A DNA stretch of 64,000 nucleotides. Source: Dictyostelium discoideum. Its lineage: Eukaryota. The position numbers and the translations under genes were made by a program. The stretch's first letter is position 1, and the number at the start of each line of letters is the position of its first letter. Positions 3,367 through 62,792 of this stretch are shown here, piece by piece. Under the pieces are notes generated by a model. It was not told where the DNA came from, did not search any database, and worked only from the letters and a program-made list of their open reading frames with translations. The stretch spans positions 2,560,001 to 2,624,000 of the forward strand of contig CM000152.2 of NCBI GenBank assembly GCA_000004695.1, in the 5' to 3' direction.

Positions 3367-5304
3367 TTAAATATTTGTATCAGATTTCCTAATATTTTGT
3401 AAAAAGTTATTTTTTGGAGTTGATAAAATCGGTTTTTGAGAATTATAATTATCATCTGAATCATCTTCACTTTCTGAATTATCACTTTCATTTTCTTTAT
3501 TTTTAGTTGATGTTGTTGTGGTTGTAGTTGTTGTTGTTGTATTTGTACTATTATTATTATTATTATTATTATTAGTTAAAATGGAAGACGGTATATTTGG
3601 TGAACTTGAAACATTATTTATAATTGGTGAAGAAGTTGGTCTATCATCATTACTTATTGACCTAGAATGACCACTACTACTTGATGTATTTACATTAGCA
3701 CTACTACTACTACCACTAAGATCAACTCTATTTCTATTGAAAATCTTTGTATTATATTCATCATCTGTAGAGATAACTGATTGATCATAAACAGATTTTG
3801 GAATTTTTAAGTAAGAAATGTTACCACTGATGACACGAGCAGTGAAATCTGGTACAAAGTGATCAGATTTCAAAGCACCAACACCAAGAGTAGAGAATGG
3901 ACCACCTTCACTAATAAAAGCTTCACTACCTGAACGAATTTCAACTTTACCTTGGAGGATGATTGTAAAGAAATCAGTGGCGACACCTCTGGTATAAATG
4001 AATTTATCACCTGTGGCTGGTCTATCGACATCCAAAACAATGGCACCTTTAGTGGAGAGCATTTTGATGAAAACATTTTCAGAGATGAACTTGGAGGAGA
4101 ATTCATCGATTGAACCACTAAGATAAGAGTAAATGGCTTTGACTTGTTGTGAGGATAATTGGGCGAGTGCAGTTTTTGGACCATGGAAAGAGCCGATTGT
4201 TCTATAGTCAAAGGTTGAATGATGTTGATTCTTCTTTCTAACCTCATGATACATATCATTCTCATCGAGAATTTCATCTTGAAGAATCTCTTCAATGATA
4301 TCTTCCAAACAAATGATGCCAAGGTTCTCATAGAATGGATCCCCTTCACCTTCGTTATTAACTTTATGTACGATTGCCATATGTGAACGACCAGTTTTAA
4401 ACTCTGTTAACATTTGATCCAATGATGTATCATTCCATGTCTTTACCAATTGTCTTTTGTATAGATTGAGAATGGTTCTAAGTGGTACTTTATCAGCTGG
4501 ATTCAATAATGCTAAATCTTTGACGTATAGACAACCTACAATATTGGATTTGTTTCCTTCAAATACTGGAATTCTACTATGTCCACTCTCTAAAATCAAT
4601 GTAATGGTATTATAGTCTAAAAGACTTTCAATATCAACACTAAATACTCTCTCCATTGGTGTCATAATTAATGAAACTTTTTTATGTGCAAAATCTAAAA
4701 CACCTGTTAACATTGTAACATCACTACGAGATACACCACTTTCATTTGCATGGGCTGAATGAATATCTAATAATTTTTTTAACTTTTTTAAAAAGAAAGA
4801 AAGAGAGAGAAAAAAAAAAAAAAATATTTATTAATAAAATATTAATAAAAAAAATAAATAATAAAAAAACTTACTTGATTTCTTGAATAAATTGTACCCA
4901 TTTCATTACCTAAAATCCAATCTAATGTTAAACTGATTGGATAAGCAAATGGGAAAAAGAGAAAGATGAAAACATAAACGATATAGATTGTATGAGCACC
5001 AACTGCTAAACCATGTCTTGAACATGCGGCTTGCGGTATAATTTCACCAGCAATAACGATAATTGTAGTTGATAAAATAAAACCAACGAAACCACTTGTC
5101 AAATCGGCAAGGAAAATTGATAAAAGTGCATTTACACCTACATTACCCAATAAAAGGGTACAAAGTAGTAAATTACCTTTTTGTCTAACCGGATATATAA
5201 TTTTTGCATATTTACTTTCTTTCGCCGTCCCACTCGCTATAATAATCTATATATATATGTTCAAATAAAAATTTTTTTTTTTTTTTTAATTGGAATTAGA
5301 TTGG

Positions 5305-26559: not shown

Positions 26560-27032
26560 TTAAAAGATTGAAATTGATTTATTCTTTTTACCAATTCTCT
26601 TACGAGCAACATTTGGATTCTTATTACCATAACCAATTACAATATCATCAGAAGGACCTTTATGACCAAAACCTAAATCGAGATCATTCATATTGATTTC
26701 TTTTGAAACTTTCTTTTTATATAATTGACCAGTTACTCTTAATTTATGTAAATATTGATCTTCAGTAAGAATGATATCGTTACTCTTTTTACCACCTTTT
26801 GGTTTTGGAATTGAATAAATTGTACCTCTCAAATTGAATTGTTTAGCTGAACCAACACTAACTCTTTGATTACCATTTCTATCAACATATGTTGTTGCTT
26901 TATATAATGATTTATTACCACAATGTCCACAAAATATTTTATCCATATCAGTTGTAATACTTTTTTTTTAATTTATAAATAAATAAATAAAATAAAAGTA
27001 ATTAGTATATACATATATTTAAATAATTATTT

Positions 27033-27063
<31 letters not shown>

Positions 27064-28427
27064 CTATGGTATACATACTTTAAACATGCAACACATTTTA
27101 AAACGAATTGTTTAACTTGTTTAATAACGACACCATCAGCACTAATTAAATGAAGACCCATTTGAAGGATAACATTTTGCATAGAGAAATCTCTAGTGAT
27201 ACAACCAACATCATAATGTACTTTCTCTTGAACATAAGTTGAAGATAATTTATTTTTAATATTATCAGGTGTAATCCATTCACCTTCGTCCTCTACTTTA
27301 ATAACTCTATTCTTTTTTCTTTCTTCAGCTTCTTCAGCTTGTTTAATCTTTAATTGACGTAAAACTTCTTTTGGATCAACTAAATTTTCTTTTGAAACTT
27401 CTTCTTCAATCTTTTCTAAATTTACCATTAATTTATTATTTCTTTTCTTTTTACCTGTTATATTATTATTATTATTGTCATTATTATTATTAGTGTTATT
27501 ATTATTATTATTTACAGATTCTTTTTCTTCTTCAACTTTTTCAACTTTTTCAACTTTTTCAACTTGTTCAACTTTTTCAACTTTTTCTTCCTCTTTTTCT
27601 TCATGTTTATGATCACAACAACTATCAGTAGTTGTTGACTCTATATTTTTATTATCAGTTGATATTGGTTTTGATTTTTTATTTTTATTTTTATTTTTCT
27701 TTTTCTTTGGTTTATCTGCAGTTGTTGTTGTTGTTGCTGTAGAAGTAGTAGTTGTAGTAGTTGTAGTTGATTCTGTAGTTGTATTTGATTCTGAGGCCGA
27801 TTCTGATTTATTATCTTTTTTATTATTATTGTTGTTATTGTTATTATTATTATTATTTTTCTTATGAACTGGTTTCTTTGTTACAACTTGAAGTTTTTCA
27901 GGTTCAGTTTTAATATGATCAATACCATTAACTTGAGCTTCAAAAGTATAAGTTAAAGCTATTAATTTCATATCGGTAGCAGATAAAGATGGATAATCAC
28001 CAGTTTTCTTTGAAAATTCAGAGACTGCAACCATTGATTCATGGGTTGGTTGTCTAGTTTTAATTTCAAATGGAAAAGATGTTAAGAAAGTACTTGTTTT
28101 TTTATCTTTAACTTCTTCTAATACTTCTGGAATTGTCCATAATTCTTTACCTAATGTCTCTAATCTTGTACCTGAAATTAATGCATTTGTATCAATAATT
28201 AAATAACTTGCTGTAGTTTTTTCATTTGTCATTGCTAATGTTTCCATTGATTTAACTAATTCATCACTTTCAGCAGTAACGCTTCTTTCGCCAAATGGAT
28301 TATCATTTGAATTTTCATTTAATTCATTTAATTCTTTTAATTGTTCTTCTGTTAATTCTTCATATTCAACCTCTTCTTCCTCTTCTTGTTGTTTATCAAC
28401 AATATTATTTTCAATTGGTTCACTCAT
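26560..28427 (-). CDS. nob1: NOB1 homolog: PIN-domain endonuclease with C-terminal zinc ribbon, for 18S pre-rRNA 3' end maturation. Exons 27079-28427 and 26560-26959.
   Basis: PIN domain LIIDTNALISG. The zinc ribbon is split by an intron: ..LKCVACL|N ITTDMDKIFCGHCGNKSLYK (compare human CHGCFKTTSDMSRVFCSHCGNKTL). YSIPKPKGGKKSNDIILTEDQ matches YSLPTPKGGKYAINPHLTEDQ. Donor AA|GTATGT, acceptor aaaaag|. Confidence 0.85.
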
Positions 28428-28777: not shown

Positions 28778-31702
28778 TTATTCTCTTTTTTGTTTTGGAG
28801 TATTATTATTATTATTATTATTATTATGATTTTGTTCTTGTAATTGTTCAACATGTAAAACTATATCTTTAACTTTGCTTATGAAATGAACTAAAATTTG
28901 ACTACTATAATCTATGAAAGGACCAGCCAAACCTAATTTGAATAAAACGAAACCAACACCACCCAATAGGATTGTTAATAACAATAATAATGGTGAAGAG
29001 ATGATTGAGATGAATTCATTGAAACCTAAAACGCATAAGAGAATGATCATATAACCTGGTACACCACCACCAGATGTTAAACGATTTTGTTCAGAGAGGG
29101 CTTGCATATAATCACTCTTTATTGTTAAACGGAAATTTTCACAAGCTAAACAACAATCTTTATATGGAATGATAATTTTTGAACTATTGACCATGGTATT
29201 TTCTTCGTGTTCATCATTATCAAGACGTTTAAAGAAAGAAACATTTGAATCTTCCTCATCCAAACGAAGATAGGAGAAAAGATCGATTAACTTTTCAGCA
29301 TTTTGACGTGCATCTTGGAAAATTGAAGCGATATCATCAGTTTTTGTCCATTTTCTTGGAAGATTACGATTGTCCATATTGAATTTCTCTTCGAAACGTT
29401 TACGCATACGCATTTGTAAGAATTCAGCACGTTCAGTGATTTTATTCTTTAAACCATCAGCTAATTGCTCTCTAAATTTATTGATTAATTCATTGACTTT
29501 TTGTTCGTCCAATTGGAAATCTACTAAACGATCTCTAAATTCCTTTTCATTGGAAGAGAGTGCATCATCATAGTAAGTTTTAATCTTTTGCCACATATTA
29601 TTTGGTGCTTGTTCTGTGATTTTGGTTAATAAAGGTGTTAATTCTTGTTGGAAGGTTTTATCTCTCATTAATTTTGATAAACGTACTAATTGATTCTCTT
29701 TTAATATTGAAAGTTCTTTATCGATCTTTATCTTTAATTGTTCTAAATCATTTTCAAAACTCCAATCACTACCTGGTACAATAGATTGATTTGCAACAAT
29801 TTCAAAATATTCAATTGATTTCTTTTTAATACCATTTGACCATGTTGAAAATTGTGGTATAATACCAACTGATGCTGCTGTTAATAAAACTGAACTACCA
29901 TCACGTTTTTTATTATTATTATTACCACTACCACTACTACTACCTGTATTTGAATCAGTAAATTCTTTAATTAATGAATTATAAAATACTAAAGTATTTT
30001 CATTTAATCTTTCCATTTGTTTATCGAAAAGATATTTCAATTCAGTGAGAATACGGTCAGTTAATACTTGACGTTTCTTTTGAACTGTTTCTAAATGATA
30101 ACGTTGTGCAGGTTCATCATAAACTGATAAAGATTGGTCGAGAATACGTTTTGATTTCTCACCAAATTGTTCTTGAATACGACCACGTTCAATATGTTCT
30201 TTGATTGGTTTAATGTCACGTGTAAATTGAGTCATTGATTGTTCGACAAATTCATCACAACGATAAAGAGCCAACATCTCCTTTTGTGATGGTAAATCTA
30301 AATCACGATTACTCTTGATGGTTTCCCAAACTTGATAACTGAATTGATAGAATCCATCGGCTGGAATATCATCATTTCTATACTTTCTCTTTGGAATAAA
30401 ACTATCGGCACCACTATCACTGAATCTTTGTTTCAATTGTTCAACTTGACCTAAAAATGCTGTTGGTGAATAAATCTTATGTGGTAATGTTGTAAATTCA
30501 AAATCAAAGAAATCACTCTCTCTTGTACCCACAAATTCCTCTGGTTTTTGTAAATCTGTCCATAATTTTGTAATATCTTCCATTAATGTTGCTTTTAATC
30601 TTTCTAATGGTGTAACACCATCATGATCTCTAATTAAGAAAAATATTAAAATTTTATGATTTCTTTTAAAAAAAAAAATAAAAAAAAAAAATATTAATAA
30701 ATTTGAATTACAATTTATATTTATGTATATTAATATATATATTATTTACCTTTTCTTTTGAAATAATTGTAAATTTAATTCAAAAACAGTTTTTAATAAT
30801 GAAATATTTGCAGCATTATAACGACCAATATCATGAGCCCACATATTGATAATAAGTACTGAAGAGAGTGCTAATGAAAAGAGTGAAGTTTTTCTTTCAA
30901 ATGCTTTTTCATCTTCACCTCTTTCACGACCATCAGTACCTTCAACATCTAAAATTAAAAATGTTTCATTCTTATTGTTGGTAGTACTTGCAACACCCAT
31001 CCAAACACCTTGTGTAGTTTGTTTACGACCAGTTGATGCGTCCATAACTGCAAATCTTGTATTGAATAATAAATTCAATAATGTACTCTTACCACTACTT
31101 TGTGGTCCTAAAATTGAAATAACTGAATAATCAAATCCTTTTGTTAAAAAATCATCTCTATTTGATAATGTTGATAAAAATGTTGTTCTACCATTTTTAT
31201 TATCTTCTTTTCTATTTATTTTTTTTTAATTAAAAATTAAAAAAATTTAAAAAAAAAAAAAATTGGCAATGAAAAAAAAAAAAAAAAAAAAAAATTAACA
31301 GATTGGTGTTAGAAAATAATTTAAGCTATCTATTTATCAAGATTTAAATAATAAAAATACTTACACAATGTCACCTTTATGATCGATAAATTGTACAATA
31401 TCTTGATATTCGTGTTCTTGTTCTTGTGTTTGTTGTTTTTGTTGTTGTGGTGTTTCTTGTAGTGTTGGGGTTGGTCTAATTGGTTCGACTGGTTTTGTTT
31501 CCTCTAAAACAACAAATTCATCCTCTTGTTGTTGAGTATCTTGGTCGTCTATTTGTTCTTGTTGTTCTTGTTGTTGTTGTTCTTGTTGTTCTTGTACTTG
31601 TTGTTCTTCATCTTCTTGTTTAATATTTTCATTGCTCAATCTTGGTTGATTGGTTTGTTGTTCTTCTTCAACTGTTTGATTTGTAGTTATTTCTTCGCTC
31701 AT
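28778..31702 (-). CDS. Sey1/RHD3 (root hair defective 3) family dynamin-like GTPase, an ER membrane fusion protein. Exons 31365-31702, 30750-31211, 28778-30662.
   Basis: Exon 1 has a Q/E-rich N-terminus ending [10 protein letters not shown]. Exon 2 carries P-loop [15 protein letters not shown] and [46 protein letters not shown]. Exon 3 begins [21 protein letters not shown] (the G4 region) and ends with two TM helices. Donors GTAAGT and GTAAAT. Confidence 0.85.
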
Positions 31703-32716: not shown

Positions 32717-33260
32717 CTAAACACCACACAAACAAAAAAAAAAAAAAAAAAAATATCCAAAACAACCTTTTGTTTACCAAAAAAAAAAATATAAACAAAA
32801 TAAAATAAAAATACTATCCAATGTGATAGCGCCAGAGACAACATTTGTGTTTGTGTGACACTTTTATTTATAATAATGTCAGATCCAAATCAGATTTCAA
32901 ATAATTACTGACAACCCAACCGCTAAAAAATTTTTTTTTTTTATTGGGCAATGAAAAATCTTGGGTATTTGGAAAAAAAAAAAAAAAAATAAAATAAAAT
33001 AAAATTATTAATAGTAAAAAAAAAAAAAAAAAAAAAAAAACAATTCGAGAAACAAAACAAAAAAAAAAAAAAAAAAAAATATTACCCATCACTGAAATAT
33101 AACTATATTTAAATATATTTGCATATTAATAATTTTTTTATTTTTTTTTTTAAAATTTTGATATTTTTTTTTTTTTTTTTTTTTTAAATAATCACTTCCC
33201 AAAAAAAAAAAAAAAAAAAAAAAAAAATCAAAAAAAAAAAAAAAACTAAATTTATTAAAG

Positions 33261-34061
33261 ATGAAAAGTGGTTTATTTTTAACATATATAACATTTTTAA
33301 TAATAATAAATATTGTTAATTGTGGAATCTTTAAATTTTTAGAACCAGTAAATTATATATCATCATCAAAATGGAGACTATCTAGAGACAGATCAATGAA
33401 TATTGGATGGAATTCCGAAGATCACAATGATACAATTCATTCAATAACAACATCATCAAGTGGACAATATATAATTTCATGTTCAAATGATAAATTAGCA
33501 AAATTTCATAGAGTTTTAATGTAAGTTAATCAATCAATTAATTAATTAATCAATTAATTAATATTTATTAATATTTATTTTATTTTACAAGGTATCCAAA
33601 TTTATATCCAGATTGGACACATATTTATTATGGAGAATTAAAATTAAGAGGATATGGTAATGATGATATTGAGAATTTAAAATGTTTACAAACATTAGAT
33701 GGTAAACAATTATTAACATTATCAGTTAATAAAAAAGAGAATAGAGTTCATTTGGATACTTTTACATTAATTGAATTAGATTCAATTGAAAATAGAAATC
33801 CAATAATAAACATTAAATCACCACAACCACCACCACCAAACATTAATCAATTATCAAATATTACAAACTTTAATATAATATTCCCATTGGATGATTATAA
33901 TGAAGTTTTTGTAAATTCATCATCTTTAAAATCAAATTTATTAAAATCACATATTTCAAAATCATCTTTAAAACAGCTTGAATCAAATAATCATTTTTCA
34001 CCATATACAACAACCTTAATAAATAAATTACAAAAATCACCACAAGGAGAACAGCAACACC

Positions 34062-34123
<62 letters not shown>

Positions 34124-36223
34124 GGAGAACAACAACAACAAGGAGAACAACAACAACCAATTTTTGATTTATCATTAAATGGTAAACATTTATTATTATC
34201 ATTTGATAATAAAATTAAAATTCAAAAAGTTCATAATCAATCAAATGATAATGGTAATCAAAAGTTTAAATGGGAAATTATAACAATTGAAGCAAGATAT
34301 AAAATTCAAGATGTTGTTTTTTTACCTGATAATAATGAAAATGATAATTCAATATTAGTTTTATTATTAGATTTAGAGAATGATGGTGATGGTAGTGATG
34401 GTAGTGATGGTGGTGATGATAGTGCTCAAAATTATCATCATCATCATCAATTAGAGAAACAAGCTAAATTAATTTTATATAAAAATATTGATGGAAAGAA
34501 ATGGAGACCAATTGAATTGGAAATTTCAAATCTACTTTTATCAACATCATTGAAAATCATTAGAAATAAAGCATTACCTCAAAATGATTGTATTTTAAAT
34601 AAACAGCAACAAAAACAACAACCAATTTTCGTTGGATTTCAAGATGATAGATTCACTGTTCATTTAGGTGAAATTAAAAATGATAAATTGATTTTAATTA
34701 AATCATTACCATTACCATTTCACCAAGAATTACCAAATGATCCAAATCATAGAGTTTCAATTGATTTTTCAAAAGATTCAAAAATGTTTTCAATTCAATA
34801 TCCAAATTCAAATACAATTTATATATATACAAGAGATGATTTTGATAATGAAGATAATAATAATAATAATAATAATAACAATAATAATAATAATGATGAT
34901 GATGATGGTTCATATTCGTTTAGATTATCAAGTATAATAGATGATTTGCCAATTAGATCACATGGTTCTGTATTGTTATTCAATTTTAAATATAATTATT
35001 TAGTTACAAATTTCGATGGTCATTTATCATTTTTTAGAGATTTTGAAACTCAAGTATCACAATGTGATCCAGCATCACGTACAAAAAGTTTTTATTTACC
35101 TTCACCACCTTTAAAATCAAATATTACTGGTAGTGATAGATTAGAACTTGAACAATTTGGTTTACTTTATTTACTTAAAATTGGTACCAATTCATCATCA
35201 TCATCATTATCATCAACATCAACATCATCATCAATTAGTCAAATTCAAATTAAAATTTTAATGTATACAATTTTTGGATATTCTTTAGTAATTTTATTAC
35301 AAAGATTATTAATTCCATTGGAGGTTTATTATATTGGTCCATTTATTAATAAGGTTTTAAAGAAAATTAGTTTTACTAAAATTAATATTAAAAATATTCA
35401 AAATATTTTATTTTATTCAATTGCATTGGTTATTTTATTACTTTCATTCTATGAAATTACTTTTCAAGCAGCATATACAAATGATTGGCCAGCTCATATT
35501 CATCATATTGATCAATTTTTAAATCCACCTCCTAAAAATATTTCAATATTTAATTCAATATCTGATTCAAATACAAATATTGCTTTTGGTGGTGGTAGTA
35601 CCACTACCACTTCAAATGATGAACAGTTAAATTATAATGATAATAATAATAATAATAATGAAGGTAGTGCTGAAAGTGATTTAAATAAATTATTCCCATC
35701 AATTCAATATCGTCAACAAAAGGATGATATTGATAATAGTGGTTCAAGTTCAAGTAGTGAAGAATTTTTTAATAGTTTAAATATTAAAGCACCACAAGGA
35801 AATAGTAATTTTAATTCAAGTAATGGAGGTTATCAATACTTTTCAAAATATTTACCATCATTTTTAAGAGATAAATTCGATTTCGATTATAATAATTATA
35901 TGCATTATCATGGTCCAAATACTTATCCAGCTGGGTTCCTTTATCTTTATACACTACTATACTATATTAGTAATCATGGTCAATCATTACAAATATTTCA
36001 ATTGATTTGGGCATTTTTAGAATTTTTCAATTTCATTTTAATTAAAAAGATTTGTGAAAAATTATCAATTCCAATCATTTTAGCTGTATTACCAATACTT
36101 TCAAATAGATTACATTTATATAATGTTAGAGTTGTAATTAATGATTTTCCATCAACTTTTTTAATTCATATTTGTGTATTATTATTAATTAGTAAAAGGT
36201 AAATTATAAATTATAAATTATAA

Positions 36224-36304
<81 letters not shown>

Positions 36305-36682
36305 AAAATAATTAAATTATTAATTAAATTATTATTGTTATTATTATTTTATTAGATTTAAATTATTTTCAACATTATTTTCAATTATAGTTTCATTGAA
36401 ATTAAATACAATTTTCCATTCACCTGCAATTTTATTCATATTTTTTAATAGTCTTTCAATTGGTCAAGTAATTTTAAATTTAACTATAATGGCATTCATT
36501 CAATTATTAGTTGGTTTACCATTTTTAATGGTAAATCCAGTTGCTTACTTTACAAATGCTTATGATTTTAGTAGAACTTTATTATGGGAAAAAACTAGAA
36601 ATTTCAAATTTATTGGTAGATTAATTTATGATTCAACTTTATTTAATATTTTATTGGTAATTATTTATTTTTAATTTAATAA

Positions 36683-36729
<47 letters not shown>

Positions 36730-37278
36730 TGGTTCCTAACATTTAAAATTTTTTTTTTTATATTTATTATTTAGTTATTATTATTAATTATTACAATTTT
36801 AATATTTATTTATAAATATCAATTGGCTGTAAATGAAATTAATAGATTATTAAAAGTTGTAAAGAATAATACTGGTGGTACAATTAATAATGAAAATAAT
36901 AATATTGGTGATGAAGAAATTGAATTGAAATTAAAAAGAATTTATATATTATCATTTATTAGTGTAAATTTCTTTGCAGTAGTTTGGGCAAGAGGATTAT
37001 ATACACCATTTATGTGTTGGTATTTCTATACACTACCAATCATATTGTATTTCGCTAAATTCTCTTATACTTTTATTGTATTATTTTGGTTAGCTCACGA
37101 AATACTATTTAGATTCTTTAAAGATTTCTATATTGAAATGTTGGGTACATTTATATTCTTAAATATAAATCTTTTAATTTTAATTAGATTATATAATAAT
37201 TTCAATTTTACAACTTCAACAAAATCTACAATTCCAAGAATAAAAACAAAAACTCAACAAAAAATCAAAACACAATAA
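33261..37278 (+). CDS. alg3: ALG3 (dolichyl-P-Man:Man5GlcNAc2-PP-Dol alpha-1,3-mannosyltransferase), continuous in frame with a ~500-aa N-terminal extension that begins with its own signal/TM exon. Exons 33261-33520, 33592-36198, 36356-36656, 36775-37278.
   Basis: ALG3 blocks: AYTNDWPAHIH (compare AYTEIDWKAYM); HYHGPNTYPAGFLYLYTLLYY; SNRLHLYNVRVVINDFPSTFLIH; LLVGLPFLMVNPVAY (compare LGLPFLLENPSGY); TLLWEKTRNFKF. The last three exons are linked by GTAAAT/GTAATT donors and T-rich acceptors, and the intron at 36199-36355 is largely (ATT)n. No stop codon separates the upstream WD-like/low-complexity region (poly-Q, poly-N) from ALG3. Confidence 0.7.
36215..36300. repeat. (ATT)n microsatellite within the ALG3 intron
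   Basis: tta/att repeats at 36215-36300, inside intron 36199-36355. Confidence 0.8.
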
Positions 37279-37303
37279 ATCAATAATTAAATAACTAAAT
37301 AAT

Positions 37304-37346
<43 letters not shown>

Positions 37347-37531
37347 AAATAAAAAGAAATGTATTTTTAATTAATTCCTTTATTTAAGTTTTTATAGTTT
37401 TCTATTTTTATTTTTTACTTTTTTTTATTATTAAAATATTTTAATTGATTTATAAAATTGATAGAAAAAAAAAAAAAAAGGAAAAAAAAAAAAAAAGAAA
37501 AAAATAAATAGTTAAATATTATATTATTTAC

Positions 37532-38253
37532 TTATTTAGTTTCAGCAAATAATTCTCTACCAATTAACATTCTTCTAATTTCACTTGTACCAGCACCAAT
37601 TTCATATAATTTAGCATCACGAAGTAAACGACCAGTTGGGAATTCATTGATGTAACCATTACCACCTAAAGTTTGAATTGCTTGTAAAGCCATTTGGGTT
37701 GCATTCTCAGCAGTGTATAAAATGACGGCAGCACAATCTTTACGAGAGGTGTAACCAGCATCGGCAGATTTAGCGACAGAGTAAACGTATGAACGACTTG
37801 CATTCAATAAAGTGTACATATCTGCGACTTTACCTTGCATCAATTGGAATTCACCAATTGGTTTACCAAATTGTTCACGTTGGTGAAGGTATGGAACAAC
37901 ATTATCCATACATGCTTGCATAATACCTAATGGACCAGCTGATAAAACTAAACGTTCATAATCCAAACCACTCATTAATACCTTGACACCACCACCAACA
38001 GTACCTAATACATTTTCATCTGGTACGAAACAATCTTCGAAAACTAATTCACATGTGTTACTTCCTCTCATACCAAGTTTATCTAATTTTTGACCAGTTG
38101 AAAAACCTTTCATCTCTTTTTCAATTAAAAATGCTGTAATACCTTTACTTCCTGCATTAATATCTGTCTTTGCATAAACAACTAAAACATTTGCATCTGG
38201 ACCATTTGTAATCCACATTTTATTACCATTTAATAACCAACCACCCTCTTTTT

Positions 38254-38299
<46 letters not shown>

Positions 38300-38325
38300 T
38301 TTATTATAACTACTATTATTTAATA

Positions 38326-38392
<67 letters not shown>

Positions 38393-38995
38393 GTAATAAT
38401 AATAATAGTAATAATAATAATAATAATAATTACCTGTTTTCTTTGCATTTGTTTTCATACTAACAACATCAGAACCAGCATTTGGTTCAGACATAGCGAG
38501 AGCACCAACAAAATCACCACTAATTAATTTTGGAAGATATTTATCTTTTTGAGCTTCATTTGCATTTCTAGTGATTTGATTGATACAAAGATTTGAATGG
38601 GCACCATAAGAGAGAGCGACTGAGGCTGATGCTCTTGATAATTCTTCCATTGCAATACAATGAGCGGTATAACCTAAATCTAAACCACCATATTTAGATG
38701 GTGCTGTAATACCTAATAAACCTAAATCACCCATTTTCTTCCACATTTCATTTGGGAATAAATTGTTTTTGTCAACATCAGCTGCGATTGGTGCTAATTC
38801 GTTTTGAGCAAATTCTCTAACACTTTCTTGTAATTGTAATAAGGTTTCATCAAATCCATTAATATCTCTACCTGTAAAAATGGAACGAGAAATAATATTT
38901 TTATTGCTTGATGAACTTTTAATAAATCCTAAAATATTACTTGATTTTTTTAATGATCTAAACATTTTATTACTGTTGTTTTGACGTCTCGACTT

Positions 38996-38998
<3 letters not shown>
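37532..38998 (-). CDS. ivd: Isovaleryl-CoA dehydrogenase, mitochondrial precursor (acyl-CoA dehydrogenase family). Exons 38434-38998 and 37532-38247.
   Basis: Basic N-terminal presequence. ACAD motifs ([21 protein letters not shown]; [18 protein letters not shown]). AKKTG|[16 protein letters not shown] parallels human KKGNHYILNGNKFWITNG. The 186-nt intron (donor G|GTAATT, acceptor aaaaag|) is an in-frame (ATT)n/(A)n repeat, which is why the raw ORF reads poly-Y/poly-F. Confidence 0.85.
38283..38425. repeat. (ATT)n microsatellite, ~48 units, forming the intron of the IVD gene
   Basis: Perfect aat/att repeats between the GT donor at 38433 and the acceptor at 38248. Length is a multiple of 3. 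Confidence 0.8.
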
Positions 38999-42496: not shown

Positions 42497-43108
42497 TGGG
42501 ACATCAAATTTCTAAAGAAGATAATGGGTAATTATTATTAATATTAATAAATCAAAATATGCCAAACCTAATAATTTTTAATAATAATTTTTTTTTTTTT
42601 TTTTATAAATAATTATTAATCCACCCCAATTTTTAATTAATTTTTCAAAAATATCAATTTACTTACACCCCACACATTTACCCCACTTTTTATTTTTTTA
42701 TTTTTATATATATATATATATTTTTTTTTAAAAAAAAAAATCAATTTATATTTTACTTTTTTTTTTATATTATTTTTTATTTTGGATTTAGAGAACAAAG
42801 CAATAGTAATAATTTAAAGAAAGAACGTAGATATACAACCAACAGTAGTAATCTACATTTCCTTTATCAACAAGAAGAAGGAATTGGAATTAATTATAAA
42901 ACAGGATCAGCAAATAACAGTTTGAGCAATAGTACTAATAGTAATAATAATAATTATAATAATACAAATAGTAGTAATAATAATAATAATAGTGGAAATA
43001 ACAAAAAAATAACAGAAAGTACAAGTTTAGAAGATTTTAAACAATTTTCAACCACACTTTCAATTTCAAGTACAACACCACCTGACACACCAATAATTTC
43101 TTATAATA

Positions 43109-43147
<39 letters not shown>

Positions 43148-43956
43148 CAAATAAAGCTGTACATTTTACAAGAACAAGATCTAGATCATTAAATATAACA
43201 AATACAAGTAGAAATTTAAAGGTTACATCATCTCCAATCATAGATAGTCAGGTATGCGCACCAAATAACAGTTATAATAGTTCAATTCAATCTTTAAATT
43301 CATTATCATCTACAAATAGTTTATCAATCAATACAAATACAAATACATCATCATCATTATCATTATCTTCAAATTCTTCAAATAATAGTTTATCAACTCT
43401 AACTAATACAACTACTACAACAACAACTACTACAACCACTAATACAACACAACAACAACAACCTATAAAAGGTAGAAAATCAAAATCAAGTAACGCATTA
43501 TTTAAATCATTAAGATCATCTTTAACAGGTTCTTCAAGTAGTAATAGTAATAGTGGTAAAAAGAGATCATCTTCAATATCCTCTAGTACAAATAGTTTAG
43601 ATATAAATAGCGCCAATAATAATAATAATAATAATAATAGTTTAAAAGTATCATCAAAGAAATCATCAAAAGGGGGTTCACCAAATTCAAGTACAGAATC
43701 ACTTCAATCTTTATCAACATCAGCATCAGCATCATCATTAACATCCACACCACCATTACCACCAAAAAGTAATGCTTTTTCAAAATCTCAAAATTCAAGT
43801 GCATCATCATTAAATAAACAAGTTATATCATCATTACCACCATTAGCACCAACATCAACATTAACAACAACAACAACAAATTTAGAAGTTTCAAAAGAAT
43901 CTTTAAAGCCATCATCAACACCAATTGATAATAATTCTGTAGCAGATTCATCCTAC

Positions 43957-44039
<83 letters not shown>

Positions 44040-44971
44040 TAATAATAATTTACTTGATAGATTAACAGATCAATTACATAGAGATCCTTTCTTTTATAAT
44101 ACAAATACAGCATACCAAGAAGAGAATATAATAGTTGAAGAGGTCGTAGTAAAAGAGGAAGAGAAATCATTACCTCCAAAGAAATTACCACCACCTTTAC
44201 CACCTAAAAACTTTAAACAAACAACAACCACCACCGCAACAACAACAACAACAACAACCACAACAATGAATCCACCATCACCAATAATTCAAAATGTAAA
44301 TAGAAATAATAGTAGTAGTAATAATAGTAGTAGACATGAATTATTGAGAAAATCATCAGGTATATTACCACCACAAACTGAACCAACCTATCCAAGTGAA
44401 ACAAGTTCAAAGAGATCATCAGTTGAGATTAAATATTTAGAAGAGAATCATAAATATCAAATATTTGATAGATTGGGTAGTGGAACATTTAGTGATGTTT
44501 ATTTATGTATTAATAAAGAGAATGGTAAACAATATGCAATGAAAATCATTGATAAATCATTAGTGACAATGATTGCACAACATACTGATATGAAAGTTGA
44601 GACAGAGGTAAACATACTGAAACAATCATTTCATCCTCACGTAATTCAAATCATTGATCATTTTGAAAGCGAACTTTATTATTACATTGTCACTGAATTA
44701 CTACAAGGTGGTGAACTCTTATATCAATTAGAAAAGAATCATCCCTCAACCAATGAAAACGTTTCAAACTACACTGAAGAACATGCTAGAAAAATCATTA
44801 AACAAGTCATTCAAGCTGTTGGATTCTTACATTCAAATAAAATTGTACATCGTGATCTTAAACCTGAAAATATCCTATTCCGAGATAAATCATTAGGTTC
44901 AATTTTAAAAATTATTGATTTTGGTTTAGCTTCATATGTTGATCATGATTGTAATTGTAATAATAATAATG

Positions 44972-45011
<40 letters not shown>

Positions 45012-45546
45012 AAATGGTGAAGTAATACAACCATCATCACCACCACCAACAAAATTAATTGATGTTTGTGGTACACCAGAATTTCAAGCACCAGAAATGG
45101 TAAAGAGATTAGGATATTCATATCCAGTTGATATTTGGTCAACTGGTATCATTTTATATATTTTATTATGTGGTCATCCACCATTTCAAGGAAAGAATAA
45201 TATGATAGTTATGAGTTTAATTATAAAGGGTGAATTAAATTTCGATTCAAGTGTTGGTTGGGATAATGTTTCAGAGTCTGCAAAGGATTTAATTAGAAAA
45301 ATGTTAAATCCTGATCCAGAGAAACGTTTAACAGCTCAACAAGTATTATTACACGAATGGATTACTACCTCTAGTGATGTTAATGGTTCCCCTCAATTGG
45401 GTGCTCCTTTATTCTATAAACAACTTAGAAGATATAATTCTCAACGTCACTTTGAAAAAATTGGTGATACTCTTTTAAAATCTCAAAGATTTATTTATAT
45501 GTCACCAGAAAAAGATTATTTAAAAAGAAGATCAATACAATTATAA
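42497..45546 (+). CDS. CAMK-like Ser/Thr protein kinase with an N-myristoylation signal and a long S/N/T-rich N-terminal region. Exons 42497-42528 and 42792-45546.
   Basis: A 32-nt first exon encodes [11 protein letters not shown] (Gly2, Ser6) and ends with donor GG|GTAATT. Acceptor atttag| at 42791 is in frame. Kinase motifs: [42 protein letters not shown] poly-N/D insertion lies between DFG and APE. Confidence 0.8.
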
Positions 45547-49747: not shown

Positions 49748-53314
<3,567 letters not shown>

Positions 53315-53813: not shown

Positions 53814-56800
53814 ATGGGATCCCAAAAGATTTTCTTGATTTTGTTTACAATTTTATTGTGTTTGAGAACTATAAAATCTATTTCAGTTGAAGAATGTAAT
53901 TATTTTTTTTTTTAATATTTAAAAAAAAAAAGGAGTTATAAATATTAATATTATGTTTAGCAAATTGTATTAGTTTTTTAGCCAACCAACTTGGAATAAA
54001 TTTTTTTACCTCAATAAATTCTTCAAGCCAAATTCAATATTGTTATTATACATCTTATATTACATGTGACTCTAATGAGAGTATAACTGAATTAAATCTA
54101 TCTCAAAATTCATCTTCTAATATAATAGGTTCAGACCTATTTTTATGTTTTCCAAATTTAAATTCATTGTTTGTATTTATTTTTTATTTTTAATTTTATT
54201 TTTATTTTTTATTTTTATTTTTATTTTTTATTTTTATTTTTTTTTTATTTTTGCTTTTTTTTATTTTTTTTTTTTATCTTTTATCAATTTATTAATTTTG
54301 TGTTTTCAAATAGATATCTTAAAAAAGTAATACTCAATAGTGATATTTTATATACATTACCTTCAACTGTAAAGAAATTACATTTGGAAAGATGCACTGG
54401 TTTAACCAATGTAACTCAAAAATTACCGCCATATGATTATTTGTATGTATTGTTGAAAAAATAAAAAAAAAAAAAAGAAAAAGTGTTTTTTTTTACTAAT
54501 TATTTAAATATTAGAGAGATAATTACCTTTTCATCAGATACTTTCATATTTTATATGTCATGGATTCAAAATATTAAAGAGTTTTATTTTTATAATGTTG
54601 AATTTCCATATACTTTAAATACAACTTTTGTTACAGATTTTGAAAATATTGAAAATTATACCAGACTAGATTACATGGGCTTCTCAACAAATGAAATACC
54701 TGATCTTACTGGTTTTTCATGTGGTGTGTAAGTAAACAAATTATTTAATAAATAAAAATAATAATAGTTTGTTATTGATAAAAATAATAATAATAATAAA
54801 AATAAAAATATAGTGATATGCTTTTAGGTTTTGCTTTTAAAAGTTCATTTGAAAAATTATTAACATTTAGTGGTGTTAAAGATATGATGATTTGGTACTA
54901 TACAAGACCAATAGATATACCAACACAATTATTACAATTAAGTGGAATGCAAAATTTGTAAGTTGTAACTATATTTTCTAAAATTTAACAATAATAATTT
55001 AAAATTTTACTGATTCTTTTTAATGATAAAGGCAAATTAATATAAATTTTAAAGTACCATCTTATCAATATGATTTCTCAAATTTAACATCATTATCAAT
55101 GCTTCAACTTATGGATAAATCAACCAATACAAATAACTTGGGAAGAAATGGTTTACCAATTTCAAAATTACCACCAAATTTAAAAGAATTTTATTATGCA
55201 GGAATTTTAAAGAAATCACCATCAATGGAAATTTTTAAAGATGTTAAAATTGTTGATTTCTCATTATGTGAAATAAATGATACATTAAAAGATGTTTTCT
55301 TACCAACAACTTATTCAACAAATAATTTGTAACTATTTTCATTCATTAAATTATTTTTTACTTTTATTTTTTTTTAAACAGTTACTAATAGTTGTTTTTA
55401 TTTTTATATATATTATATTAATAGATATTTTGAAAACAATAAATTATATGGTTTAATTCCTCAATCATACTGTAATGTAATTACAGATTTTAGCGATAAT
55501 ACTTTAACTGGTGAAATTCCAAAGTAATTATTTTCTTTTTTATAAAAAATATTAGAATTAATTTATATATAGAAAAAAAAAAAAAAAAAAACTAACAATT
55601 TTTTAAAATAATTATAGTTGTTTCACGTGTTATTTTAATGATACTGATTCTTTAGTGAAAAATAAATTTGCAAATAATAAATTCACAAATTATGCGACCC
55701 AAGGTCCTTGTAGTATGTATTTTTAAAATATAATAATTTTTAAAATTTTAATTTTATATATATACTAACTATAATTTAATTTTTAGCAACAATGAAACCA
55801 AATTTATTAGTTAATGCTACAACTTTAATATTATATGGTGAATCTTTAGGTTTTAATGGTAGACTTATAAAAACAAATGCAACAGGTTCAACAACTTTTA
55901 CAATGATACAACCAAGTAGTTATTTTACATTAAATTTAAGAACAACAAATATATTTGCAAAAGGTGCAAGATCATTAATACTCACTTGGACAGTTGGTAG
56001 CGAAATTAGAAAATTCACATTACCAATTGTTAAACAAGCACCTGTACCTGCAAATATTACTTACAGTGGTATTGCATCGAATCAAGTCGAAATAAATGGT
56101 GAATTCTTTACATACAACATTACAGATGTTTCGGTTTTAGTAAGTGGTAATGATTGTCTTGTAACTTATACAACATTCAACCAAATCAAATGTACATTAA
56201 CAAAAGGTTTAAATGAAAGTATTGTATTACCAGTTGATTTTATTTTTGTTGACATTATTGTAGGTGGAAACAAAACAAGTGTTTATGTTAGATTACAAGA
56301 AACATCATATATAAACAATAAAAAGTGTAACCCTGAACTATGTACTTCCAATACATATTGTAATTTAAATGATGGAATTTGCTATCCACATTTAGATTGT
56401 ATTTCAGATTGTACAATAAACAATGCAGTTTGTAATCATGTTAGTGGGTTGTGTGATTGTAGGAATAATTGTAGTAATGCAGGTTTATGCAATGGTGTAG
56501 ATGGTACTTGTTCGTGTAATTCTGGTAGATTATTCAACGATTGCAGTGGTATTCAATGTACAGGTACACCAATTTGTTCAAATCATGGTACTTGTGATAC
56601 CTCAAACGGAAAATGTAAATGTGAATCAATTATATGGGTTGGCAATGCATGTCAAGATACTCAACATTATGTAAATGCAATTACACCATCAAATGAAAAT
56701 GGTGGTAAAGTTTTATTATTTGGTTGGTTTGGTTCAACTCATTCAAATGCATCAGTAATAATTGGCTCACAAGAATGTAATATAACTTCAATAAATCAAA

Positions 56801-58034
56801 CTGTAATAGAATGTGATATTGGTCATGGAAAAGGAATAGTACCAACATATGTTTCCCAAAATTCTTTGGAGTGGTCAAGTCAGACAATGTATAAATATTT
56901 ATCAATACAATTGAAATGTCCAAATGATTGTACAAGTAATTTAAATGGTAATTGTGATACAACTAAAGGTGTTTGTGTTTGTATTGGTAACTTTACAGGT
57001 ATTGATTGTGGTTCATATCCAACTAGTAATCCATCAGATGGAAGTGGAAGTGGACCAAAAACAAATACAACAGTGGATGATAATACTGGTAGTGGTTCAA
57101 TTAACAATGGTAATGTAGATTACCAAGTATCAATCACTTCACTATTAGAAATTGGATTTGATGGTAGCACAATTAAAGAATACAACCTAACTAAATTATG
57201 GGAAAAGCCAAGCAATATTAACAATCCAAACCCTAATATACATACTTTTACACAAACAATTGAAGGTAATTGTACAATCACTTCAACAATTGAAGAAGTT
57301 TCAAAAGATAAAGAATTTTCATTTGCTGGTATTGACTTTACAGTTTCAGGAGGTTCATTAAAATTATCAGTTCAAATTTTAAATTATCCATATAGTTCAA
57401 CATTAAATACATTACAACTAAGAATGAAATCATCAGCTTTAAATTATTCAACACCAAAATGTGGTAGTACTCAAGATGATGAAAAAGTTTCAATAGATTC
57501 AAATGGATTCACAAATGAAAATGATAATTTAAACTATTTAACAATCACAAAGAATAATAGAAAACTTTATGGTCGTTTCCTTTCAAAAATGTTATCAGAT
57601 GGTAGATCAACATTTACAACAAGTAACATCATTTCAACAACTGATGTCGATGTTACTGTTGCATTAAATTTACCACATTGCGATATCTGTTTATTAGATC
57701 CTGGTAAGTTTAATTTTTATAATTGATTTTTACATTTTTTTTTTTTTTTTTTTTTTCTTTTATTCCCTCAAATAACTGACTTTTTTTTTTTTTCATTTCC
57801 AAATCAGATTTTTCAATTCTTTTAAATTCAAATGTAAAAGATAATGAAGAAACATGTGAAGATGAAACTAAAGATACAAAAATATCAACCACAACAATTA
57901 TTGCGATCTGTGTATCAGTGGGGGGTGCTGCAATTATAGGTGCTGCTGGTTATCTTTTGTATAGAAAAAAAATTGTTGAAGTTTTACCATCTTCAATGTC
58001 AAATTCAAAATTAAGAAAACTAAATGCAAAATAG
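53814..58034 (+). CDS. Type I membrane receptor-like protein, paralog A: signal peptide, plant-type LRRs, IPT/TIG-like beta domains, a Cys-rich EGF-like cluster, a TM helix and a short cytoplasmic tail. Ten exons: 53814-53895, 53961-54168, 54314-54442, 54515-54727, 54814-54957, 55032-55328, 55425-55523, 55618-55712, 55787-57703, 57808-58034.
   Basis: Exon 1 MGSQKIFLILFTILLCLRTIKS. LRR text LYGLIPQSYCNVITDFSDNTLTGEIP and LPISKLPPNLKEFYY. Large exon with CNPELCTSNTYCNLNDGICYPHLDC..CSNAGLCNGVDGTCSC..CSNHGTCDTSNGKCKC. TM AICVSVGGAAIIGAAGYLLY. Every exon phase matches paralog B. Confidence 0.75.
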
Positions 58035-59585: not shown

Positions 59586-62500
59586 TTATTATTTATAGTG
59601 AAATGGTTTTAGGAAATTCTTTTCAAAGTTCATCATTAAATAATTTAACAACCTTTTCAAATGTTATTGATTTTAAGATTTGGTATTATACAAAACCTAT
59701 AGATATACCAATACAATTACTACAATTAAGTAGATTACAAAATTTGTAAGTTGTTTAGGAAAAAATAAAAAAATAAAAAAAATAATATAATTTTACTTTA
59801 CTAATAAAAAAAAAAATAATAAAAATAAAAAAAGACAAATTAATATAAATTTTAAAGTACCATCTTATCAATATGATTTCTCAAATTTAACATCATTATC
59901 AATACTTCAACTTATGGATGAATCATCAAATAATAATAACCTTGGAAGAAATGGTTTCCCAATTTCAAAATTACCACCAAACTTAAATGAATTTTATTAT
60001 GGAGGAATTTTAAAGAAATTGCCATCAATGGAAATTTTTAAAGATATTAAAATTGTTGATTTCTCATTTGGCCAAATCAATGATACATTAAAAGATGTTT
60101 TCTTACCAACAACATATGGAATTAATTATTTGTAATTATTATTTACTTATTTATTATTTATAATTTATCCTAATCATAAATTATTAATTATTATTTTTTC
60201 TTTTCTATAATATAGTTATTTTCAAAGTAATACATTATATGGTACAATACCTCAATCTTATTGTAATTTTATAACGGATTTTAGTACAAATACTTTAACT
60301 GGTGAAATTCCAAAGTAATTGTTTTTAAAAATTTAAAAAAAAAAAAAAAAAAAAAACAATATTAATATTTATTCAAACTTTTCCTTATTCTTCATTTTAT
60401 ATTTTAGTTGTTTTACCTGTTATTTTGGTGATTCTGAAATTGGTTTAAAAAATTTATTTGCAAATAATAAATTCACAAATTATGATACCCAAAACCTATG
60501 TAGTATGTTTTTTTATTAAATTAAACTTGTCTAATTTTTAACAATTATTAATTATGTATTTAATTTTTAGCGTCAATGAAACCAAATTTATTAGTTAATG
60601 CTACAACTTTAATATTATATGGTGAATCTTTAGGTTTTAATGGTAAACTTATAAAAACAAATGCAACAGGTTCGACAACTTTTACAATGATTCAACCAAG
60701 TAGTTATTTTACATTAAATTTAAGAACAACAAATATATTTGCAAAAGGTGCAAGATCATTAATACTCACTTGGACAGTTGGTAGCGAAATTAGAAAATTC
60801 ACATTACCAATTGTTAAACAAGCACCTGTACCTGCAAATATTACTTACAGTGGTATTGCATCAAATCAAGTTGAAATAAATGGTGAATTCTTTACATATA
60901 ATATTCAAGATGTTTTAGTTTTAGTTAGTGGTATTGATTGTCTTGTCACTTCAACAACATTCAACCAAATCAAATGTAAATTAACAAAAGGTTTAAATGA
61001 AAGTATTGTATTACCAGTTGATTTTATTTTTGTTGACATTATTGCAGGTGGAAACAAAACAAGTGTTTATGTTAGATTACAAGAAACATCATATATAAAC
61101 AATAAAAAGTGTAACCCTGAACTATGTACTTCCAATACATATTGTAATTTAAATGATGGAATTTGTTATCCATATTTAGATTGCTTTTCAGATTGTACAA
61201 TAAACAATGCATTTTGTAATCATGGTAATGGTTTGTGTGATTGTAGAAATAATTGTAGTAATGCAGGTTTATGCAATGGTGTAGATGGTACTTGTTCGTG
61301 TAATCCCGATAGATTATTCAACGATTGCAGTGGTATTCAATGTCCAGGTACACCAATTTGTTCAAATCATGGTACTTGTGATACCTCAAATGGAAAATGT
61401 AAATGTGAATCAATTAAATGGGTTGGCAATGCATGTCAAGATACTCAACATTATGTAAATGCAATTACACCATCAAATGAAAATGGTGGTAAAGTTTTAT
61501 TATTTGGTTGGTTTGGTTCAACTCATTCAAATGCATCAGTAATAATTGGCTCACAAGAATGTAATATAACTTCAATAAATCAAACTGTAATAGAATGTGA
61601 TATTGGTCATGGAAAAGGAATAGTACCATCATATGTATATCAAAATTCTTTGGAATGGTCAAGTCAGACAATGTATAAATATTTATCAACACAATTAAAA
61701 TGTCCAAATGATTGTACAAGTAATTTAAATGGTAATTGTGATACAACAAAAGGAGTTTGTGTTTGTATTGGTAACTTTACAGGTATTGATTGTGGTTCAT
61801 ATCCAACTAGTAATCCATCAGATGGAAGTGGAAGTGGACCAAAAACAAATACAACAGTGGATGATAATACTGGTAGTGGTTCAATTAACAATGGTAATGT
61901 AGATTACCAAGTATCAATCACTTCACTATTAGAAATTGGATTTGATGGTAGCACAATTAAAGAATACAACCTAACTAAATTATGGGAAAAGCCAAGCAAT
62001 ATTAACAATCCAAACCCTAATATTCATACTTTTACACAAACAATTGAAGGTAATTGTACAATCACTTCAACAATTGAAGAAGTTTCAAAAGATAAAAAAT
62101 TTTCATTTGCTGGTATTGATTTTACAGTTTCAGGAGGTTCATTAAAATTATCAGTTCAAATTTTAAATTATCCATATAGTTCAACATTAAATACATTACA
62201 ACTAAGAATGAAATCATCAGCTTTAAATTATTCAACACCAAAATGTGGTAGTACTCAAGATGATGAAAAAGTTTCAATAGATTCAAATGGATTCACAAAT
62301 GAAAATGATAATTTAAACTATTTAACAATCACAAAGAATAATAGAAAACTTTATGGTCGTTTCCTTTCAAAAATGTTATCAGATGGTAGATCAACATTTA
62401 CAACAAGTAACATCATTTCGACAACTGATGTCGATGTTACTGTTGCATTAAATTTACCACATTGCGATATCTGTTTATTAGATCCTGGTAAGTTTAATTT

Positions 62501-62792
62501 TAATAATTGATTTTTATTCCCTCAAATAACTGACTTTTTTTTTTTATTTTTCATTTCCAAATCAGATTTTTCAATTCTTTTAAATTCAAATGTAAAAGAT
62601 AATGAAGAAACATGTGAAGATGAAACTAAAGATACAAAAATATCAACCACAACAATTATTGCGATCTGTGTATCAGTGGGGGGTGCTGCAATTATAGGTG
62701 CTGCTGGTTATCTTTTGTATAGAAAAAAGTTTGTTGAAGTTTTACCATCCTCAAAGTCAAATTCAAAATTAAAAAAACTAAATGTGAAATAA
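58545..62792 (+). CDS. Type I membrane receptor-like protein, paralog B (tandem duplicate of 53814-58034). Ten exons: 58545-58626, 58696-58909, 58981-59109, 59219-59437, 59599-59745, 59835-60131, 60216-60314, 60408-60502, 60571-62487, 62566-62792.
   Basis: Same architecture and exon phases as paralog A. Exon 1 MKFSKIFSIFILILLCIGTLKS. Exons 6-10 are ~96-97% identical to paralog A, while exons 1-5 are only ~50-60% identical. Intron 4 is an (ATT)n repeat. Confidence 0.75.
59467..59590. repeat. (ATT)n microsatellite forming intron 4 of receptor paralog B
   Basis: tta x ~40 between donor GT at 59438 and the acceptor at 59598. The raw ORF reads poly-L. Confidence 0.8.

Follow-up and report, generated by a model that had tools for sequence, protein, structure and literature searches.

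The gene described here lies at positions 33261 to 37278 on the forward strand of a 64-kb window of Dictyostelium discoideum DNA (contig CM000152.2; the window is the whole stretch analysed, 64,000 nucleotides). It probably encodes, with a likelihood that we put at about 0.8, a single 1223-amino-acid (aa) membrane protein of the endoplasmic reticulum (ER), which belongs to an ancient and uncharacterised clade of ALG3 paralogues (CAZy family GT58, GT-C fold) and uses a different acceptor. What is new in this protein is the combination of a GT-C enzyme of the GT58 type with a propeller of the WD40 type, N-terminal and probably luminal, and an added transmembrane (TM) helix, whereas multi-domain GT-C enzymes as such are already a known theme.

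From the ATG at 33261 to the TAA at 37276-37278, the exons join into a frame of 3672 nucleotides (nt); all three introns are of the GT..AG type and the frame is kept across them. The product is 97% identical to the protein of a second D. discoideum isolate (P0001), whose gene model has the same structure. Exon 2 is enclosed in a frame without any stop from 33572 to 36199 (2628 nt), in local DNA of 23.5% GC, the window as a whole having 21%. With the local base composition one stop is expected per 11 codons, and the probability of finding none in 869 codons is about 9e-37. Likewise, 500 shuffles gave a longest open stretch of 186 nt on average and 363 nt at most. The original prediction, an earlier reading of the window, had rightly taken this open frame to be beyond chance. 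Between 33592 and the start of the ALG3-like sequence the frame is indeed free of stops, but the 2.6 kb that the prediction gave for this stretch is the length of the whole of exon 2, the stretch itself measuring about 1.8 kb; its upstream region of about 500 aa is actually about 640 aa long up to the extra helix (TM0) and about 690 aa up to TM1 of the ALG3-type module. An exact look-up in the protein collection returned no entry for the 1223-aa model and none for the 580-aa product that would start at Met644. The locus is neither a sequencing nor an annotation artefact. Its features are the following, with model confidence given as the predicted local distance difference test (pLDDT) of an AlphaFold2 (AF2) model that covers aa 24-1223.

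33261..37278, + strand: whole gene, with exons 33261-33520, 33592-36198, 36356-36656 and 36775-37278 (splice sites and in-frame translation)
33261..33326, + strand: signal peptide, aa 1-22, MKSGLFLTYITFLIIINIVNCG (hydropathy peak at aa 3-28)
33348..35131, + strand: seven-bladed WD40-type beta-propeller, about aa 30-600, probably luminal, split by intron 1 (33521-33591)
33593-33634, + strand: propeller family motif YPNLYPDWTHIYYG
34046..34156, + strand: poly-Q insertion in a propeller loop, aa 239-275, only in D. discoideum (pLDDT <50)
34847..34909, + strand: poly-N/D insertion, aa 506-526, D. discoideum-specific and disordered in the model
35063-35110, + strand: propeller family motif CDPASRTKSFYLPSPP
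35249..35326, + strand: extra transmembrane helix TM0, aa ~640-665 (hydropathy; long helix in the AF2 model)
35261-35263, + strand: Met644 (MYTIFGYSL), inside TM0 and non-conserved
35336..35395, + strand: basic loop between TM0 and TM1, aa 669-688, probably cytosolic (a loop at that place in 11/11 members)
35396..35467, + strand: TM1 of the ALG3-type GT-C module, aa 689-712 (hydropathy; aligns with TM1 of yeast ALG3)
35474..35506, + strand: motif of the first luminal loop, YTNDWPAHIHH, aa 715-725 (aligns with yeast YTEID71Y)
35483-35485, + strand: putative catalytic base D718
35537..35875, + strand: 113-aa low-complexity insertion in luminal loop 1, aa 736-848 (pLDDT <50; GC 21-27%)
35882..37119, + strand: Pfam ALG3 (PF05208) match, aa 851-1171, exons 2-4 (175.6 bits, E=2.5e-51)
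36107-36109, 36573-36575 and 37000-37008, + strand: R926, R1029 and Y1132-T-P1134, all inside the PF05208 match
37261..37275, + strand: C-terminal dilysine motif KIKTQ (KxKxx), read from the sequence

The chain thus consists, in order, of signal peptide, propeller, TM0, a Lys-rich loop, a 12-TM ALG3-type module and the dilysine motif. Cleavable-looking signal peptides are likewise found in Polysphondylium violaceum, Heterostelium album, the malawimonad Gefionella okellyi and the relatives P0005, P0109 and P0013. The N-terminal domain of about 570 aa has a seven-bladed propeller fold. No Pfam WD40 match in it passes the threshold, the single repeat at aa 54-82 scoring 18.9 bits against a cut-off of 27, and positions 55-93 of a profile built on the extension match many WD40 proteins. 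About 110 columns are invariant in the alignment of dictyostelid proteins, about 95 of them within aa 1-643, and they include the motifs YPNLYPDW.H.YYG, DDYNE and CD..R..S.YL..PP. The poly-Q run is of unequal length in the two D. discoideum isolates. All the elements once ascribed to the upstream part, namely a signal-like N terminus, a WD-like repeat (aa 54-82) and runs of poly-Q (239-275) and poly-N/D (506-526), were recovered.

A hydrophobic segment stands at the place of TM0 in 11/11 family members examined, and aa 669-691 behind it contain 5 Lys and no Asp or Glu. Hydropathy, the topology check that the earlier reading had called for, picks out the signal-like segment (aa 3-28), TM0 (640-665), the Lys-rich loop and TM1 (689-712). 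In yeast ALG3, a protein that hardly projects from the membrane, the N terminus and the N-terminal side of TM1 are cytosolic (PMC13503287). Because the N terminus of ALG3 is cytosolic, a luminal domain can be joined to it only through one added membrane crossing, which TM0 would supply. The N-glycosylation sequons shared across the family in the extension (N176, N195 and N597) are consistent with a luminal extension. A cytosolic propeller, as in Sec12, was rejected, since the proteins begin with signal peptides, the loop behind TM0 follows the positive-inside rule and the orientation of TM1 is known from ALG3. At the other end of the chain, every full-length clade member finishes in KKxx or KxKxx, and the dilysine motif is a classical cytosolic signal for ER retrieval.

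The enzyme module is modelled with a pLDDT of 80-97, and its PF05208 score of 175.6 bits compares with a gathering cut-off of 23.6. Yeast ALG3 (9s6r) is the closest solved structure by sequence (phmmer E=5e-19), and 9s6r_A is also the top Foldseek hit of the AF2 model, with a TM-score of 0.75 (normalised to the target) over 361 columns. The low-complexity insertion of about 110 aa which had been noticed between conserved ALG3 blocks measures 113 aa and sits between YTNDW (aa 715-719) and HGPNTYPAGF (aa 860-869). It is long only in D. discoideum, the corresponding segment being about 45 aa in Dictyostelium purpureum and about 20 aa in P. violaceum and H. album. The two D. discoideum isolates differ in it by 5 synonymous and 3 nonsynonymous changes and by in-frame indels. 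A missed intron was considered here and ruled out, as the GC content of the insertion is 21-27% against about 1-13% in introns and flanks, and the gene model of the second isolate keeps the frame through it.

The public models of two orthologues seem to be faulty in places. In that of D. purpureum (P0002), the signal peptide and the first WD repeat (YIITCANDKIAKFHRILM) are missing, although the genome (L001, ~4173-4655) encodes both and has an intron at the position matching that of the window gene. Similarly, the P. violaceum model (P0003) has a gap in the enzyme domain, where INDFPSTF...SLKL is left out.

Relation to canonical ALG3

As judged from sequence comparison, the fusion protein is in the ALG3 family but is probably not an ALG3 orthologue. 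In an alignment with the canonical ALG3 proteins of yeast, a ray, an insect and one metagenome, the members of the propeller clade, whether from Dictyostelia, Anaeramoeba, Gefionella or metagenomes, show 33-66% identity among themselves but only 20-30% to any canonical ALG3. The canonical proteins are 34-63% identical mutually (yeast versus animal 34-36%), which means that even the distant ones among them are closer to one another than the clade is to any of them. The Pfam ALG3 scores likewise fall into two groups, with 150-181 bits for the propeller clade and 434-487 bits for the canonical proteins. The cytosolic N terminus with minimal extramembrane mass, a trait of canonical ALG3, is absent from the fusion protein, in which 640 aa precede TM0. 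The label of ALG3 mannosyltransferase first given to the gene holds as far as the family (ALG3/PF05208) is concerned, but the 20-30% identity and the scores of 150-181 bits place the protein in a separate, divergent paralogue clade.

The active-site residues described in the ternary complex of the yeast enzyme (PMC13503287) were mapped through the alignment, with the following outcome for the clade.

Yeast D71, catalytic base (PMC13503287): kept, D718
Yeast R280, binds the donor phosphate (PMC13503287): kept, R1029
Yeast R163, binds the acceptor pyrophosphate (PMC13503287): kept, R926
Yeast Y410, CH-pi contact to the acceptor GlcNAc (PMC13503287): aromatic kept, F1171
Yeast Q373, orients the acceptor mannose (PMC13503287): clade-invariant Pro
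Yeast H371, binds the donor phosphate (PMC13503287): clade-invariant Tyr
Yeast W286, CH-pi contact to the acceptor mannose (PMC13503287): clade-invariant Lys
Yeast Y75, contacts the donor phosphate via water (PMC13503287): clade-invariant His
Yeast R171, binds the acceptor pyrophosphate (PMC13503287): Arg shifted by one position, R933

All 11 clade members and all 5 canonical ALG3 proteins in the alignment have Asp at the position of D71/D718. A divergent member on a GC-rich metagenomic contig (L007, 7644-9464) reads VEWSAN in place of NDWPAH, with Glu replacing the catalytic Asp, and several other clade motifs are degraded in it as well.

The alternative that survives best is that of a true dictyostelid ALG3 orthologue, extended at its N terminus and fast-diverged, which would still convert Man5GlcNAc2-PP-Dol to Man6. 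The PF05208 match far over the threshold, the best structural match to yeast ALG3 and the conservation of the catalytic Asp, of R280 and R163 (R1029 and R926) and of an aromatic residue at Y410 all agree with it. What speaks against it is that the clade extends to Anaeramoeba and a malawimonad at 35-44% identity and yet reaches only 20-30% to any canonical ALG3, when yeast and animal ALG3 are still 34-36% identical, and that the Pfam scores split in two groups. It also fits poorly with the replacement of the acceptor contacts Q373 and W286 and of the donor contact H371 by clade-invariant P, K and Y. Moreover, Alg3 is scored "++" (two paralogues) both in D. discoideum (XP_647664.1, XP_641503.1) and in P. 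pallidum (EFA78114.1, EFA76064.1), species in which almost all other ALG genes are single (Lombard, 2016). Such an orthologue is hence improbable, and a paralogue beside a canonical ALG3 is the reading that we prefer. Our search with the enzyme domain gave metagenome fragments and animal ALG3 and no canonical Dictyostelium ALG3; it missed known dictyostelid members too, so that this absence is uninformative.

In the full-text literature, no description of an ALG3 paralogue clade or of a propeller-ALG3 fusion was found, and a paper on algal glycosyltransferases mentions GT58 only as ALG3. Existing models of clade members are labelled "hypothetical protein", while some metagenomic copies have been auto-named alpha-1,3-mannosyltransferase.

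Conservation of the fusion

That the fusion is real, and not the product of two merged genes, is strongly supported by comparison with related genomes. A search with the N-terminal 736 aa returned only four proteins, all dictyostelid and all with PF05208, namely those of the second D. discoideum isolate (97% identical), D. purpureum, P. violaceum and H. album. The extension profile, scored against 1.84 billion representatives, added Acytostelium, Cavenderia, Synstelium, Anaeramoeba flamelloides, G. okellyi and several metagenomic eukaryotes, together with a propeller fragment only in the cryptophyte Rhodomonas; it found no member from animals, fungi or plants. Every match to this profile that is long enough runs on into the same enzyme domain, and the succession of propeller, TM0 and ALG3-like domain is seen in seven other dictyostelid proteins, in Anaeramoeba, in Gefionella and in metagenomic eukaryotes. 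The original prediction had proposed either an N-terminally extended fusion protein or two merged genes, and suggested looking for the extension in other dictyostelids. The amino-acid sequence of the extension is conserved there, and all the relatives found carry it joined to the same enzyme, in favour of the first of these two options.

The junction between propeller and enzyme lies within a single open frame of 2520 nt in D. purpureum, 2100 nt in H. album and 1539 nt in Cavenderia. In Anaeramoeba, residues 23-959 are encoded in one 2.8-kb exon, in DNA of 25% GC. P. violaceum has only a 72-nt in-frame GT..AG intron between TM0 and TM1 of the ALG3-type module, which leaves nowhere near enough room for a terminator and a promoter. 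In Gefionella, Trinity transcripts span propeller and enzyme, and hence both parts are on one mRNA in this organism. On one GC-rich metagenomic contig, a propeller open reading frame (ORF) is followed by an ORF on the same strand with the remaining propeller, TM0 and the enzyme.

Within the window, the junction has a coding-like GC content of 17-29%, as against about 1-13% in introns and flanks, without an AT-rich trough of the intergenic type. Comparison with the second D. discoideum isolate reveals 35 synonymous and 32 nonsynonymous changes, and the frame is kept through the indels in that isolate's model; the propeller accounts for 20 of the synonymous changes and, outside the repeat runs, for 12 nonsynonymous ones. 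An internal ATG had been proposed at about 35262, and the codon of Met644 is indeed present at 35261-35263, but its use as a start is not supported. At the position of Met644, the other dictyostelids have Ile, Phe or Leu. The whole segment from the propeller to TM1 is devoid of Met in D. purpureum and H. album, and in P. violaceum a Met occurs only in the linker that precedes TM0.

It could also be argued that the full-length fusion is accompanied by a shorter isoform, made through an internal start or alternative splicing, in which the enzyme module occurs without the propeller as well. Gefionella has three Trinity isoforms of 763-887 aa, and the 383-aa metagenomic protein P0154 begins just ahead of TM1. 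However, it is the C terminus, and not the N terminus, that sets the Gefionella isoforms of 842 and 887 aa apart, P0154 comes from a 1253-bp contig and is possibly truncated, and other dictyostelids share no conserved start codon, which makes this arrangement very unlikely. Two genes read as one, with an upstream WD40 protein ending at about 35200 and an ALG3-like gene starting from its own internal promoter at ATG 35261, are scarcely credible: this ATG does exist at the start of a hydrophobic segment and Dictyostelium genes are densely packed, but there is no stop between the parts in D. discoideum, D. purpureum, H. album, Cavenderia or Anaeramoeba, the Met and the junction GC speak against it as given above, as do the Gefionella transcripts, and the product from Met644 would carry one extra TM without signal peptide or propeller, inverting the topology of canonical ALG3.

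Certain points weigh against a single fusion protein of a paralogue clade with its own acceptor. The propeller is modelled with only moderate confidence (pLDDT 52-63). P0154 may be propeller-less instead of truncated, and an additional internal transcript may be made in D. discoideum. R926 and R933 are conserved, and a lipid-(pyro)phosphate-linked acceptor would explain this at least as well as a protein acceptor. Lastly, that the second D. discoideum homologue is canonical, and that XP_641503.1 corresponds to the fusion gene, is something we infer. As to P0154 itself, it belongs to the clade by its enzyme-domain sequence and starts with MDNAKWRK directly before TM1.

Proposed reaction and known systems

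For the fusion protein, the following mechanism may be proposed. The signal peptide would place the propeller in the ER lumen, and TM0 would bring the chain back to the cytosol, such that TM1 of the ALG3-type module inserts in its normal direction from cytosol to lumen. D718 of luminal loop 1 would thereby come to lie in the lumen, beside the propeller. The sugar would be taken from a dolichol-phosphate sugar, most likely dolichol-phosphate mannose (Dol-P-Man), because all the GT-C enzymes of this subclass use such a donor. It would be passed to an acceptor other than the Man5GlcNAc2-PP-Dol of canonical ALG3, since the acceptor-contact residues are systematically changed and the chemistry residues are kept. 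By analogy with other membrane glycosyltransferases, the propeller might serve as a platform over the active site which binds the acceptor or a partner. The canonical step from Man5 to Man6 would presumably be left to the second, canonical ALG3 paralogue of D. discoideum.

The chances are about even that GT58 is not a single-function family and that an ancient branch of it performs an undescribed glycosylation dependent on dolichol-phosphate sugar (of protein, glycosylphosphatidylinositol or another lipid-linked glycan) outside the N-glycan precursor pathway. This second branch may date to early eukaryotes, and its patchy spread over deep eukaryotic lineages suggests an ancient origin followed by loss. 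ALG3 is usually taken to be encoded by one gene and to serve one purpose, the synthesis of the N-glycan precursor. With a conserved sister lineage that carries a luminal propeller, some eukaryotes may have an extra, unassigned ER glycosylation reaction, and the clade members named alpha-1,3-mannosyltransferase or ALG3 by domain transfer have probably been assigned the wrong substrate. D. discoideum is genetically tractable, so the question of function is directly approachable.

The fusion protein shares with canonical ALG3 (Dol-P-Man:Man5GlcNAc2-PP-Dol alpha-1,3-mannosyltransferase, GT58, 9s6r) the Pfam family, the GT-C fold of about 12 TM helices (TM-score 0.75), the Asp in the first luminal loop, the Arg equivalents of R280 and R163 and, to judge from the dilysine motif, a cytosolic C terminus. 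It differs from canonical ALG3 in the added signal peptide, luminal propeller of about 570 aa and extra TM, in a Pfam score of about one third of the canonical values, in an identity of 20-30%, and in that it probably stands beside a canonical ALG3 in the same genome.

A luminal domain next to a GT-C active site has parallels. For example, PMT/POMT enzymes carry a MIR domain and TMTC1-4 carry TPR repeats as luminal recognition domains. The luminal domain of ALG12 touches the acceptor glycan (PMC13503287). Like PMT/POMT, TMTC1-4 and ALG9/ALG12 (the last two with a C-terminal luminal domain), the fusion protein would combine a membrane transferase that uses a polyprenol-phosphate sugar with a soluble luminal domain near the active site. 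Unlike them, it has an N-terminal domain of the WD40-propeller type, joined via an added TM and without homology to MIR or TPR. The likeness is hence one of working and not of family membership.

To our knowledge, the WD40 propellers characterised so far reside almost without exception in the cytosol or the nucleus. A luminal one, if true, would be unusual in itself. In contrast to propellers such as those of RbBP5, THOC3, Sec12 and G-beta, that of the fusion protein follows a signal peptide and is probably luminal, only one of its blades keeps a recognisable WD40 sequence, and it has invariant motifs of its own (YPNLYPDWTHLYYG, DDYNE and RxKSFYLPPPP).

Neighbouring genes and the rest of the window

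An acyl-CoA dehydrogenase gene (isovaleryl-CoA dehydrogenase-like; 37532-38998, - strand) lies tail to tail with the fusion gene, which it also follows in D. purpureum (L001) and in the other D. discoideum isolate (L004). A TAT/ATA-rich stretch that its ORF translates into poly-Tyr and poly-Phe is almost certainly an unspliced intron that happens to stay in frame. On the upstream side and on the opposite strand lies a Sey1/RHD3 GTPase gene (28778-30583, - strand). This divergent arrangement is kept in H. album (L002, 274-3220) and in the other D. discoideum isolate (L004, 1522-4462), and in Cavenderia (L006, 1-940) Sey1/RHD3 is found nearby with one gene between.

Elsewhere in the window, two tandem ORFs of 644 aa (55792-57726 and 60576-62510, both + strand) lie about 4.8 kb apart and are 97% identical (623/644). 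Both encode ComC supersandwich, TIG and ComC second beta-sandwich domains, and the pair looks like a recent tandem duplication. The other ORFs recorded are listed below.

1528-3234, + strand: ORF with TSP1 and TAXi_C (aspartic-protease-like) domains
27027-28427, - strand: ORF with a PIN_6 ribonuclease domain
42922-45546, + strand: protein kinase ORF
49748-53314, + strand: 1188-aa ORF without a Pfam match

When positions 33001-37500 of the window are compared with L004, from an assembly labelled D. discoideum (GCA_054859355.1), about 2.4% of the aligned exon-2 positions and about 9% of the 5'-flank positions differ, with the 35 synonymous changes falling in about 1180 codons. Divergence at such a level seems high for two isolates of one species, and either the window or GCA_054859355.1 may come from a closely related sister species or from a lineage that has diverged.

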